DNA of 64,000 nt. Origin: Escherichia coli. Lineage in GTDB: Bacteria; Pseudomonadota; Gammaproteobacteria; Enterobacterales; Enterobacteriaceae. The stretch lies in assembly GCF_003018235.1 (NCBI RefSeq), contig NZ_CP027437.1; one strand, given 5' to 3'. The translations under genes were made by a program, and so were the position numbers. The notes under the pieces were generated by a model. It was not told the DNA's origin. It worked only from the letters and a program-made list of their open reading frames with translations, and ran no database searches. Positions 16,332-18,231 of the stretch are shown in pieces (position 1 is the first letter of the stretch; each line of letters opens with the position of its first letter).

Positions 16332-18029
16332 TTACGCAGAAGTACGCATCACACCAATAGTATTAAATTCATTTTTCACACTGAGCAAACGGGGGTCATG
16401 AAGCAAAACATTTGACCATAAATCATTCTCTTTAATTAATTGTTGCCAGCGCTTTTCATATTCTTTCTTACCATAAACAGTGTAAATTAACGGCAAAATC
16501 ACACCATTGATTTTGTTAGTGTTAATATTTGCCAGTAACTTCATAATGTCATTTTTTATAGATGCGCCATAGATCAGAAACTTCGTATAAAGCGAGTTAA
16601 CACAGGTGTAATCAAGACCATGTTCAGGCTCAAGTTTAAGCAATAAACTTTTGGCTTTGTCATTATGTCCTTTCAGTGCCATGAACATAGCCAGAATAGA
16701 GGTAATAATTGGATTATTACAGGTGTTTTGACTGTTAAGATTTAATGCAAAAGATATCGCGTTATCGAGGGGGGATGTGTAATAAAGTATAATTAATTTA
16801 AGAATGCTTATGCCCATTTTATTGGGTTCAAGAGCAATGCTTTTTTCTATTAAATTAAATGCTCTTGCTAGGTCACCGTTCAAAAAACATAGCAGAGACT
16901 GATAATAATAAACGTCTGGCGAATTAGGTTTGAGTAAATGTGCTTGCTTAAATAGCACATTAGACACTGAATGTTCATCTTTTAGCCCACTGATTAAACC
17001 CAGTAAACCCAATGCCTGAGAATTTGAAGGGTTAATTTCAAGAGCCTTTTCAATGGAGGTTACTGCCGTAGTTATTGCTTGTTTTTGTTCACTGAGTCCA
17101 AGGAGGGCTAATGATATATGGCATTCCGCCAGGCAACAGTAGGGCAAGGTATTTTGCGGTTGCGTACTCACACAATCTCTAAATATTACTAATGCTCGTT
17201 TCAAACTCTCTGGTGTATAACGATACATTTCCATTCTGCCATTCATATACATAACAGCAGAATCCAGAGATGGCATTTGTTGTGTATTAATAGATTTAAA
17301 ATTAATATTGGGTATTTTTTCAATAAGAATATTAATTACTTGTGATAATAATACGGAAAGAGGATTATCGGGGTTGAAATCAATACTTTGATGATCAATC
17401 AATTTATGTGTTCTGGCATGAATTAACTCAATAAATAAACGCCAGTTTTTACCATAGTGAACGACCTGACCCATAATATAATATTCTGGACCTGTTTTAT
17501 TGATAAACTGATGGATAGTGGAAAAATCACTGGCCTCATTTGTTACCGAAGCTGGTAAAATATCTAAACCACAAAAAGCATATTTTGAAAGGCCCTGGAC
17601 AAGTTCGTAATGGAGTTTTAGAACATTGATCGAACCTTCAGTACGAAAGGGAAAAACGGCAAGAGTAGTGGTCGACTTTACCGGTTCATTATCGGTCACA
17701 ATCACAATAGGTACAGTAAAACGGTATCCACGACCATAGACCGTTTCGATATACTTACATTGTTTATTCTCATGCAAAAGTTTGCGCAATGCATAAATAC
17801 ATCGTGTTAGAGATTCATCACTGGCAACACTCGCGCTCCAGACCTTATCGATAATCTCTTCTTTGCTAACAATTTCACCGTCAGCATTAAGCAATAGAAT
17901 AATAACGCCAAGTTCTTTCGGGGGAATATGATATTCTTTGTTTTTGAATAATAATATTCCATTGTTTTTTAATACAAAGTCGCCAAATATATATTGTTGT
18001 GTATTATTTTTTCCATGTTGCAATTGCAT
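16332..18029 (-). CDS. eilA: HilA-like OmpR/ToxR-family transcriptional regulator with C-terminal TPR region, 565 aa
   Basis: N-terminal winged-helix segment (FVLKNNGILLFKNKEYHIPPKELGVIILLLNADGEIVSKEEIIDKVW...ESLTRCIYALRKLL...YIETVYGRGYRF) closely parallels Salmonella HilA; AT-rich gene. Confidence 0.8.
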   Translation of the reverse strand: MQLQHGKNNTQQYIFGDFVLKNNGILLFKNKEYHIPPKELGVIILLLNADGEIVSKEEIIDKVWSASVASDESLTRCIYALRKLLHENKQCKYIETVYGRGYRFTVPIVIVTDNEPVKSTTTLAVFPFRTEGSINVLKLHYELVQGLSKYAFCGLDILPASVTNEASDFSTIHQFINKTGPEYYIMGQVVHYGKNWRLFIELIHARTHKLIDHQSIDFNPDNPLSVLLSQVINILIEKIPNINFKSINTQQMPSLDSAVMYMNGRMEMYRYTPESLKRALVIFRDCVSTQPQNTLPYCCLAECHISLALLGLSEQKQAITTAVTSIEKALEINPSNSQALGLLGLISGLKDEHSVSNVLFKQAHLLKPNSPDVYYYQSLLCFLNGDLARAFNLIEKSIALEPNKMGISILKLIILYYTSPLDNAISFALNLNSQNTCNNPIITSILAMFMALKGHNDKAKSLLLKLEPEHGLDYTCVNSLYTKFLIYGASIKNDIMKLLANINTNKINGVILPLIYTVYGKKEYEKRWQQLIKENDLWSNVLLHDPRLLSVKNEFNTIGVMRTSA

Positions 18030-18177
18030 AGAACGCTCCTTCCGTTTTCTCTATTCATAGTATTAATTTGATCAATATAAAATAAAGTATTGGCAGAATT
18101 GCTCTATCAAAAAACGCTCATTTTGTAAGATTGTGATGAAGAAATGAATGAAAGCTGATGCTTAATAATATGAAACG

Positions 18178-18200
18178 CTGGTCCCATTTTTCGGGACCAG
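18178..18200 (-). terminator. Hairpin downstream of eipD (candidate terminator separating eip operon from eilA)
   Basis: 8-bp stem ctggtccc / gggaccag with 7-nt loop, followed on the minus strand by a T-rich run. Confidence 0.45.
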
Positions 18201-18231
18201 ATAGTGGGCGATAATTGTGGGTGTTACTTAA

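Follow-up and report, generated by a model that had tools for sequence, protein, structure and literature searches.

The HilA-like regulator gene eilA as a probable separate transcription unit of the Escherichia coli eip island, with candidate elements of a proposed SPI-1-like circuit

The gene at 16332–18029 (minus strand) of the 64,000-nt stretch of E. coli DNA analysed here (‘the window’) is eilA; its product is the HilA-like master regulator of the eip island that E. coli carries near selC. The earlier placing of eilA as a separate unit, with a hairpin on either side, is correct, if not new; the identity, family, targets and promoter activity of eilA have all been published, so that finding the gene adds in itself nothing new. 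Taken as a whole, the data are best explained (at a probability of roughly 85%) by eilA acting as master regulator of the island, from a unit of its own, in what is likely a circuit like that of Salmonella SPI-1.

Results

EilA and the eip island

The open reading frame (565 aa, ATG at 18029) lies where the preliminary description placed it, and its assignment there to a HilA-like regulator holds: the product is a full-length member of its family, scoring 953.8 bits (cut-off 589) against NCBIfam model NF009037 (HilA/EilA family virulence transcriptional regulators), with EilA residues 1–552 aligned to model positions 2–553 of 553, in agreement with RefSeq annotation. Pfam Trans_reg_C matched residues 31–104 (E = 8e-16), indicating an N-terminal winged-helix DNA-binding domain of the OmpR/ToxR type, while Response_reg (phospho-receiver) was absent from EilA in the Pfam search. 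The C-terminal part appears TPR-like, on weak matches (ANAPC3, 0.0049; TPR_2, 0.0089) within residues 312–425. Among the 5426 complete E. coli genomes in RefSeq, the locus is annotated as eilA/air/SipD family in 730. A search of genome contigs with EilA recovered only two E. coli contigs, both 100% identical and mis-binned into Collinsella and Clostridium MAGs, and no distant relatives.

HilA of Salmonella SPI-1 belongs to the same protein family as EilA and has the same domain order, and EilA from strain 042 complements a Salmonella hilA deletion by way of invF, restoring invF::lacZ expression and SipA secretion (PMC4210603). YgeH, a second HilA-like regulator, from ETT2, is of the same fold class, is 34% identical to EilA over 429 residues, and also complements the hilA deletion (PMC4210603). 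YgeH differs from EilA in its shorter length (458 aa) and in being encoded within the island of the apparatus genes; its gene, unlike eilA, is expressed in LB (PMC4210603).

The island is inserted between nepI/yicM and yicS and adjoins selC (tRNA-Sec at 27777–27867). An operon of eicA, a 60-aa open reading frame, eipB, eipC and eipD (18232–23291, minus strand) encodes a chaperone and translocon/tip proteins, and the five genes eicA, eipB, eipC, eipD and eilA share one strand and are all full length in the window. In NCBIfam searches of the operon, the SicA model scored 151 bits, below its curated threshold of 184, and the SipD/IpaD and SipB matches also fell under curated cut-offs; EicA passed the LcrH/SycD model (113, cut-off 104.8), and the RefSeq annotation of the operon agrees with the NCBIfam reading. 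The inverse-autotransporter adhesin gene air/eaeX (iatC; 5730–16280, plus strand), annotated in RefSeq as EaeX/Air or IatC, is interrupted, forming two open reading frames in the same frame: an in-frame TAA occurs at 13014–13016, where other strains, and the sister repeats, read TCA. With this premature stop, the strain may not display the full adhesin. The same regulator gene, likewise of 565 aa, with the same neighbours (eaeX/air, eipD, eipC, eipB and eicA) at the same site by selC, is known from the eip/selC-B island of enteroaggregative E. coli 042 (Sheikh et al. 2006, Mol Microbiol 61:338, as relayed by later papers). Nothing essential differs between the two loci, the window being set apart by the premature stop in air.

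Salmonella hilA lies inside SPI-1, by the apparatus genes. The island that holds eilA is a separate one, and in strain YL3, where both loci occur, about 1 Mb divides it from ETT2; eilA also differs from hilA in following a tip-protein gene and in converging on an adhesin gene. No HilD/HilC-type AraC genes were found within the 64-kb window, no InvF-type activator gene is encoded in the eip island, and an Rfam search of the island gave no matches.

As relayed by later papers, EilA is required for expression of eicA, eipB, eipC, eipD and eaeX/air (Sheikh et al. 2006, via PMC4210603, PMC7058095 and PMC11068852), and it also controls eivF and eivA of ETT2 (Sheikh et al. 2006, via PMC7058095 and PMC11068852). 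The compact adhesion/translocation regulon that had been proposed for this locus stands, on these reports, in so far as adhesin and translocators depend on EilA; the regulon is not self-contained, since it extends to the two ETT2 genes.

Two conserved hairpins flank eilA

The genes air and eilA do converge, as had been suggested, and end at one common hairpin. It had been placed at 16296–16325; the hairpin is real and its limits shift, the full stem spanning 16293–16322. The stem comprises 13 bp (6 G-C) with a loop of 4 nt, and its folding energy is −22.6 kcal/mol (z = −7.3) for the minus strand and −22.0 kcal/mol (z = −7.5) for the plus strand, a stability equalled by 0/200 shuffles. Lying 12 nt past the air stop codon (16278–16280) and 9 nt past that of eilA (16332–16334), it looks like a bidirectional intrinsic terminator. 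In E. coli the plus strand gives air a good U-tract (UAUAUUCGUUAU), the U-tract for eilA is weak (GUGAUUAC), and a terminator scan called the hairpin on the plus strand only, with no call on the eilA strand. The stem is kept in every E. coli locus examined, and in E. albertii one A-U pair is replaced by G-C, while eilA has a canonical, U-rich tail on its strand. For the adhesin alleles of two loci (L006 and L007), the alignment breaks off exactly at the left edge of this hairpin.

The second hairpin follows eipD at 18178–18200 (minus strand), precisely the limits first given for it, and begins 31 nt past the eipD stop codon (18232–18234). Its stem has 8–9 bp (6 G-C); for the minus strand the folding energy is −14.7 kcal/mol (z = −2.8), which 1/200 shuffles matched. 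The structure is terminator-like for the eicA-eipBCD operon; because the tail in E. coli, CGUUUCAUAU, is a poor U-tract, some transcripts may run on from eipD into eilA. Conservation extends to the stem core CUGGUC/GACCAG, in which a C-G pair has become U-G in locus L005 and in E. albertii, where a 9-bp stem is followed by a canonical AUUUUUAUUU tract (z = −4.2). A GC hairpin likewise lies between the tip-protein gene and the regulator gene of a paralogous E. coli island.

A generic terminator scan over 15800–24200 gave 8 sites, compared with 6.7 ± 2.7 in shuffles; as this is no excess, the case for the hairpins rests on their strong stems, their position directly 3′ of stop codons and their conservation. 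Divergent E. coli loci, 9–10 in number, keep both stems, as does E. albertii, with about 25% protein divergence. In pair counts for the two hairpins, 82% and 90% of cells were paired, compared with 22–56% in slid controls. Covariation was statistically uninformative for both, with 5–6 distinct rows only.

Probable transcription of eilA apart from the eip operon

The suggestion that eilA is transcribed separately from the eip operon is supported by the post-eipD hairpin, by a 202-bp, AT-rich spacer between eipD and eilA, by a strong Shine-Dalgarno sequence and by a published reporter (PMC7058095). The Shine-Dalgarno sequence, GGAAGGAG (18036–18043, minus strand), lies 6 nt before the eilA ATG and is identical in E. 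albertii. Further upstream, a predicted −10 region (TATTTT and an overlapping TATATT; 18074–18084, minus strand) starts 19 nt downstream of the InvF-type box described below, and the block TTATTTTAT at this candidate element is conserved in E. albertii. A scan of the minus strand of the spacer for consensus sigma-70 sites found none, which fits an activator-dependent promoter and is not positive evidence for one. In the reporter study, GFP was driven by approximately 500 bp from upstream of eilA, and a mix of LB and DMEM (LB:DMEM) gave more activity from this fragment than plain LB did (Fox et al. 2020, PMC7058095). As the fragment includes approximately 300 bp of eipD, its activity does not localise the promoter to the spacer. 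From the arrangement of these sequences, eilA is probably a mainly monocistronic unit.

Two other readings of the hairpins bear on this point. Were eilA mainly the last gene of an eicA-eipB-eipC-eipD-eilA transcript, the structure at 18178–18200 would be a leaky attenuator or an mRNA-stabilising element; the common strand of all five genes, the weak E. coli U-tract and the modest fold (z = −2.8) are compatible with this, and the reporter fragment, reaching as it does into eipD, is no proof of a spacer promoter (PMC7058095). A long transcript is nevertheless quite unlikely to be the main source of eilA mRNA, given the conserved, promoter-like order of box, −10-like element and Shine-Dalgarno sequence across the 202-bp spacer, the canonical hairpin and U-run that E. 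albertii has at the same position, the GC hairpin at the corresponding junction of the paralogous island, and the activity of a cloned upstream fragment that lacks the eicA promoter (PMC7058095). It is very improbable that the hairpins have no role in transcription and are incidental palindromes or scars left by recombination where modules join. Such a view could draw on the ordinary frequency of terminator-like sites in the region, on hairpin covariation that is not significant, and on the switch of adhesin alleles right at the left-hand border of the hairpin at 16293; it is opposed by the stability of that hairpin (z about −7.4), by the location of both structures 9–31 nt past stop codons, and by E. 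albertii, which keeps both despite its protein divergence and diverged flanks, with U-rich tails on the relevant strand.

A shared box upstream of eilA and eicA

A 20-nt box, AAAATGAGCG-NN-TTTTGATA, is found upstream of both eilA (AAAATGAGCGTTTTTTGATAG; 18104–18124, minus strand) and eicA (AAAATGAGCGAATTTTGATAT; 23352–23372, minus strand). The two copies are equal at 18/20 positions, which 0/300 shuffles reached. This box and the TCAT motif considered below were both derived post hoc, from the very promoters discussed here. The eilA box is invariant in 10 E. coli loci, matches at 18–19/20 positions in E. albertii, and scores 28.8 bits with a weight matrix made from outgroup boxes (shuffle maximum 18). 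The eicA box stands out as a footprint in E. albertii, a 24-nt island of identity amid diverged flanks, and has a −10-like element, TGnTGAAGT, 20 nt downstream. In these predicted promoters the distance from the box to the start of the −10-like hexamer is 19 nt for eilA and 20 nt for eicA, which would set the box over or against the −35 region; this layout is kept in E. albertii and in locus L019, which contains the paralogous island.

The core of the box, ATGAGCG-N5-TTGATA, is common to the sycB promoter region of Yersinia Ysa, and the same core precedes the chaperone genes of Yersinia Ysa (sycB), of a second Salmonella T3SS and of the paralogous E. coli island. The sycB promoter is YsaE-SycB-dependent (PMC3467454). 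A related block occurs in Salmonella PsicA, as read from a low-quality assembly (L021) with homopolymer errors. More broadly, the boxes of MxiE-IpgC (Shigella), InvF-SicA (Salmonella) and YsaE-SycB (Yersinia) appear to share with the E. coli box the core CG-T-rich-GATA/AnAG and the same place, 19–20 nt upstream of a −10-like hexamer, before chaperone-translocator operons. The fit to the Shigella MxiE consensus, GTATCGTTTTTTTAnAG (PMC9769918), is partial, at 12/16 specified positions for the eilA box and 9/16 for the eicA box. The 50-kb ETT2 region has a single strong match to the box, upstream of ygeF-ygeG, the neighbours of ygeH. A third box-like site in the window, at 27337–27356, lies in the core setC-selC spacer, also present in K-12, with nothing obvious downstream.

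In SPI-1, HilA acts through InvF/SicA on sicA-sip; the eip operon likewise begins with a SicA-like chaperone gene, and its box is related to that in PsicA. A difference from SPI-1 hilA is that the eilA promoter itself has an InvF-type box. In the paralogous island of L019 the regulator gene is not preceded by a box of this kind, and a box copy before a HilA-type regulator gene is unreported for the MxiE, InvF and YsaE systems in the papers covered here.

The ETT2 of YL3, which has the same eip locus, encodes both a candidate activator, EivF, and a candidate chaperone, YgeG; a further candidate chaperone, EicA, is encoded in the island itself. EivF scores 184.8 bits against the InvF model (E = 1.7e-54), below the 259-bit cut-off, and is 55–57% identical to two AraC-family proteins of Yersinia enterocolitica, which we take to be YsaE. 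The likeness of the box to those of InvF, MxiE and YsaE suggests that EivF, as a putative activator, would drive the eilA and eicA promoters together with a chaperone.

A candidate EilA site upstream of air and ETT2 genes

The HilA box, reportedly described by Lostroh and Lee in 2001, consists of two hexamers in direct repeat, spaced by 5 nt, and lies before promoters of the invF and prgH types. A motif that repeats TCAT at an 11-nt period, TCATCAY-N7-TCATG, matches exactly upstream of air, eivF and eprH, and is a candidate EilA site. The copy before air, a candidate HilA-type box (TCATCATTTGCTAATCATG; 5644–5662, plus strand), lies 68 nt before the ATG and is conserved in loci L001 and L002, and a 40-nt block that holds it also precedes the adhesin gene of the paralogous island in L019. 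Within the 50 kb of ETT2 there are 2 matches (eivF and eprH) against 0.05 expected, and a further exact match lies upstream of an invF-like gene in L026. Neither this motif nor the promoter box is mentioned in the later papers on EilA covered here (PMC4210603, PMC7058095 and PMC11068852). Separately, a single operator common to the air, eilA and eicA promoters was considered and rejected, the air upstream region matching the eilA and eicA spacers at 14/20, no better than shuffles.

Discussion

The two cis-elements allow a circuit to be sketched that probably mirrors SPI-1. EilA would switch on air, eivF and eprH through the candidate TCAT site; EivF, with EicA or YgeG as its partner, would then switch on eicA-eipBCD and would also feed back onto eilA. 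This assignment, EivF and a chaperone to the box and EilA to the TCAT motif, would mean that HilA/InvF-type tiers are wired differently in Escherichia and in Salmonella. It is held tentatively, at a little short of even odds.

The box might instead be bound by EilA itself, giving direct activation of the eip genes and autoregulation of eilA with no part for EivF and a chaperone. The box does stand in the promoters of eilA and of an operon under EilA control, the EilA-dependence of the eip genes is a published phenotype (PMC4210603, PMC11068852), and a 2005 paper by De Keersmaecker names hilA, in its title, as a HilA target. Direct binding is unlikely all the same, because the core also precedes sycB, whose promoter responds to YsaE-SycB in a system said to be under YsrRS/RcsB control, no HilA-type factor being mentioned (PMC3467454); because the box resembles the MxiE box (PMC9769918) and the PsicA block; and because eivF and eprH, homologues of the classical HilA targets, lack the box upstream and have a different motif there. 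A broader doubt is whether the module works at all in this strain. Transcripts at the detection limit in ST69 and the truncated air suggest that the system may be largely silent or decaying here, in which case the architecture would be real and the module a remnant not now working as an adhesion/translocation regulon. The in-frame TAA removes the distal 1087 residues of the air product, eipD is frameshifted in L005 and iatC truncated in L010, in the ETT2 of YL3 SctQ is frameshifted and SpaN split, ST69 strains, in which those low transcript levels were recorded, showed no secreted proteins (PMC7058095), and a GC content of 36–40% fits H-NS silencing. Decay remains somewhat unlikely, given that eilA, eicA, eipB, eipC and eipD are full length here and that divergent strains show no change in the promoter boxes or the hairpins; moreover, a lone nonsense codon could be a sequencing error, and a truncated inverse autotransporter might still reach display.

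In a system as little understood as ETT2 and the eip genes, the exact coordinates of the two conserved cis-elements and two conserved hairpins could guide promoter mutagenesis. The cis-elements could also explain why eip expression tracks intact ETT2. If the proposed circuit is true, the adhesin gene air would be a direct, first-tier target of EilA, eilA would sit in a positive feedback loop across two islands (about 1 Mb apart in YL3), and chaperone release, hence secretion activity, would feed back on the master regulator itself.

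Identity and genomic setting of eilA

The region 16332–18231 holds a single minus-strand ORF, eilA (16332–18029; 565 aa, ATG at 18029), and a 202-bp upstream spacer. Its identity was established by a match of 953.8 bits to the NCBIfam equivalog ‘HilA/EilA family virulence transcriptional regulator’ (curated cut-off 589 bits), in which residues 1–552 correspond to model positions 2–553. Residues 31–104 form an OmpR/ToxR-type Trans_reg_C domain (Pfam, 8e-16), Pfam matches to TPR-like repeats at residues 312–425 were weak, and a Pfam scan found no receiver domain. eilA DNA was present in 730/5426 complete E. 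coli genomes at 90–100% identity; there RefSeq names the gene eilA and it lies between air/iatC, the product of which is given as the inverse-autotransporter adhesin EaeX/Air, and a gene for a SipD/IpaD-family tip protein. EilA 100% identical to that of the window was also encoded (tblastn) by contigs filed as Collinsella (L003) and Clostridium (L004, residues 1–540 only) metagenome-assembled genomes, a placement most likely due to binning contamination.

In annotated relatives the island reads nepI - air - eilA - eipD - eipC - eipB - small ORF - eicA - yicS - nlpA - yicL - setC, and selC (tRNA-Sec) lies at 27777–27867. Elsewhere the window consists of core chromosome (yicI ... recG ... spoT), in which no secretion apparatus genes were found; in strain YL3, which has the same island, the ETT2 apparatus is ~1 Mb distant, adjoining a tRNA-Gly. 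The small ORF (22602–22784, minus strand, 60 aa, hypothetical in RefSeq) had no family match; in one E. albertii locus (L011) the ORF called at its position has 70 aa. GC content is 36–40% in the eilA-eip part, ~50% in the core and ~62% in the adhesin repeats, giving a sharp mosaic within the island (9000–14000 versus 16000–23000) with the fall situated inside the 3′ end of air. Outside the island, a RelE/ParE toxin and HTH antitoxin pair maps from annotated relatives to ~3450–4110, between yicN and nepI, and a JUMPstart element (Rfam) lies at 63789–63827 (plus strand), close to the window end.

The preliminary description envisaged a HilA-like regulator of an adhesin and translocators remote from any apparatus, and this matches EilA as published, regulon membership and promoter activity having been shown by others. 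Three later papers agree in the passages that summarise Sheikh et al. 2006: eilA and eaeX mutants had reduced adherence and reduced biofilm (PMC4210603; PMC7058095; PMC11068852), and control of eaeX and eivF by EilA is reported in two of them (PMC7058095; PMC11068852). Huttener et al. found that EilA substitutes for HilA in Salmonella via invF activation (PMC4210603). The suggestion that eilA might be refuted as a separate unit by lack of an independent promoter is answered directly by the GFP reporter of Fox et al., in which ~500 bp upstream of eilA gave activity with a maximum in late log phase and a higher level in LB:DMEM (PMC7058095), the one caveat being that this fragment extends about 300 bp into eipD.

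In the window, air (5730–16280, plus strand) reads as two same-frame ORFs of 2428 and 1074 aa because of an in-frame TAA at 13014–13016, where other strains, and the sister repeats of air, have TCA (Ser). Translation of Air would halt after 2428/3516 residues, with loss of the distal passenger; the TAA is a true nonsense mutation or else an error in sequencing. The remaining island genes are full length, and like decay is seen in related strains (frameshifted eipD, truncated iatC).

Conserved hairpins bracket eilA

That hairpins bracket eilA was borne out: the second lies at 18178–18200, as originally described, and the first at 16293–16322, 3 nt away from the 16296–16325 first proposed. The first, a 13-bp stem, takes up most of the 51 nt that separate the convergent air and eilA stop codons, and its folding energy is about -22 kcal/mol for both strands (z about -7.4; 0/200 shuffles as good). 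A terminator scan called it only on the plus strand; the tail on the eilA strand, GUGAUUAC, is not rich in U, although the stem base is A/U-rich. The second (minus strand, 8–9 pairs, six of them G-C) begins 31 nt past the eipD stop codon, folds at -14.7 kcal/mol (z = -2.8) and is followed by a weak U-tract, CGUUUCAUAU. Terminator-like sites over 15800–24200 showed no excess (8 versus 6.7 ± 2.7 in shuffles), so the argument rests on strength, placement and conservation. Both stems were intact in 9–10 divergent E. coli loci, substitutions being confined to loops and flanks; the sole stem change (L005, an E. coli locus) leaves a G-U pair when the minus strand is read. Both hairpins are also kept, within diverged flanks, in E. 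albertii, the EilA of which is 76% identical: that after eipD has a 9-bp stem followed by AUUUUUAUUU (z = -4.2), and that after eilA has one A-U to G-C swap and a U-rich tail. Formal pair counts gave 82% and 90% of cells paired on the two hairpins versus 22–56% in slid controls, although the 5–6 distinct rows are too few for covariation to have statistical weight. Both hairpins are real.

In strains with another adhesin 3′ end (L006, L007), similarity to the window ends at 16293, precisely the left edge of the first hairpin, which suggests exchange of adhesin alleles at this junction.

A shared candidate promoter element ahead of eilA and eicA

On the minus strand, the eipD stop codon is followed by the hairpin (18200–18178), a 53-nt spacer, a 21-nt box (18124–18104, AAAATGAGCGTTTTTTGATAG), a further 19 nt, TATTTT with an overlapping TATATT (18084–18074), a Shine-Dalgarno sequence (GGAAGGAG, 18043–18036) and the ATG. 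A sigma-70 consensus scan of this strand of the spacer gave no site, as expected for an activator-dependent promoter.

The box recurs 61 nt ahead of the eicA ATG (23372–23352, minus strand, AAAATGAGCGAATTTTGATAT), with TGGTGAAGT 20 nt downstream. The two agree at 18/20 positions, against a best of 17 in 300 dinucleotide shuffles of both spacers. The eilA box is unchanged in ten E. coli loci, and in E. albertii the boxes (eicA 20/20, eilA 18–19/20) are each an island of identity amid diverged sequence. Its core, ATGAGCG-N5-TTGATA, also precedes chaperone genes in further systems of the SPI-1 family: sycB of Yersinia Ysa (GATGAGCGAAACTTGATA), the promoter of which is activated by a YsaE-SycB complex (PMC3467454), the chaperone gene of a second Salmonella T3SS (ATGAGCGATTTTTGATA) and, at 20/20, that of a paralogous E. 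coli island. A related block, TTGGGCGTTTTTGAATG, is present in Salmonella PsicA (low-quality assembly), and the proposed InvF site overlaps the sicA -35 region (PMC7595419). Matches to the consensus of the Shigella MxiE box (GTATCGTTTTTTTAnAG; PMC9769918) were partial (12/16 for eilA, 9/16 for eicA).

A weight matrix built from outgroup boxes only gave three matches in the window (29.5, 28.8 and 23.5 bits; shuffle maximum 18) and one alone in 50 kb of YL3 ETT2 (30.5 bits; shuffle maximum 20.6), on the minus strand at L025 24470–24490, ~105 nt upstream of ygeF, then ygeG and ygeH; YgeG is a SicA-like chaperone. EivF scored 184.8 bits against the InvF model (E = 1.7e-54), under the 259-bit cut-off, and shares 55–57% identity with two AraC-family proteins of Yersinia enterocolitica, which we take to be YsaE. 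From the occurrence of the box at chaperone genes and the likeness of EivF to InvF and YsaE, we infer a candidate EivF-plus-chaperone site governing eilA as well as the eip operon.

The 23.5-bit site, ACAATGAGCTTTTTTTGATAG (27337–27356, plus strand), lies in the setC-selC spacer, which belongs to the core and is found in 3667 genomes, K-12 among them, with no obvious gene downstream.

The paralogous island (L019 and L020; assemblies GCA_009799345.1 and GCA_910664965.1, labelled E. coli) has, all on one strand, an adhesin (1350 aa), chaperone, translocators, tip protein and HilA-like regulator (563 aa). A GC hairpin precedes its regulator gene, upstream of which the box is absent, and an additional InvF-type box lies ahead of a 275-aa ORF that has no annotation and might be a candidate effector gene.

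A candidate EilA site

The region upstream of air had nothing in common with the eilA and eicA spacers. It contains TCATCATTTGCTAATCATG (5644–5662, plus strand), which lies 68 nt from the air ATG and has TCAT phased at about 11 nt. The 40-nt block around it is identical ahead of the adhesin gene (motif at L019 2321–2339) of the paralogous island, the regulator of which is 57% identical to EilA. The pattern TCATCAY-N7-TCATG has exact matches ahead of two ETT2 genes, eivF (52 nt from its ATG) and eprH (61 nt), at L025 2621–2639 and 15776–15794; these are the only exact matches in the 50-kb ETT2 region, where 0.05 were expected for this pattern, itself derived post hoc. In a locus of E. fergusonii type (L026), too, it precedes an invF-like gene (motif at 9931–9949), the sole match in 20.7 kb; one more exact match, inside adeQ, is probably due to chance. 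Over air, eivF, eprH, the paralogous adhesin gene and the invF-like gene, the distance from motif to gene is 52–68 nt. invF and prgH, of which eivF and eprH are the counterparts, are classical HilA targets. Given the motif at these two genes and the reported control of eaeX and eivF by EilA, we propose it as a candidate HilA/EilA-type site.

Proposed promoter wiring

The interpretation of eilA first offered is thus supported and already published, for a characterised gene and regulon. The present analysis shows what the gene is, the hairpins, and the motifs with their conservation; novelty may be confined to the promoter wiring, advanced here as a hypothesis in which we infer the pairing of proteins with motifs and the starts and ends of transcripts. 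Most likely, eilA would be a unit that is monocistronic for the most part, prone to H-NS and dependent on an activator, with the terminator-like hairpin shielding it from the eip operon, and it would end at the hairpin it has in common with air. EilA, a winged-helix protein with a TPR-like part, would activate air, eivF and eprH; in a next step EivF, acting with EicA or YgeG, would activate eicA-eipBCD and ygeF-ygeG and feed back onto eilA.
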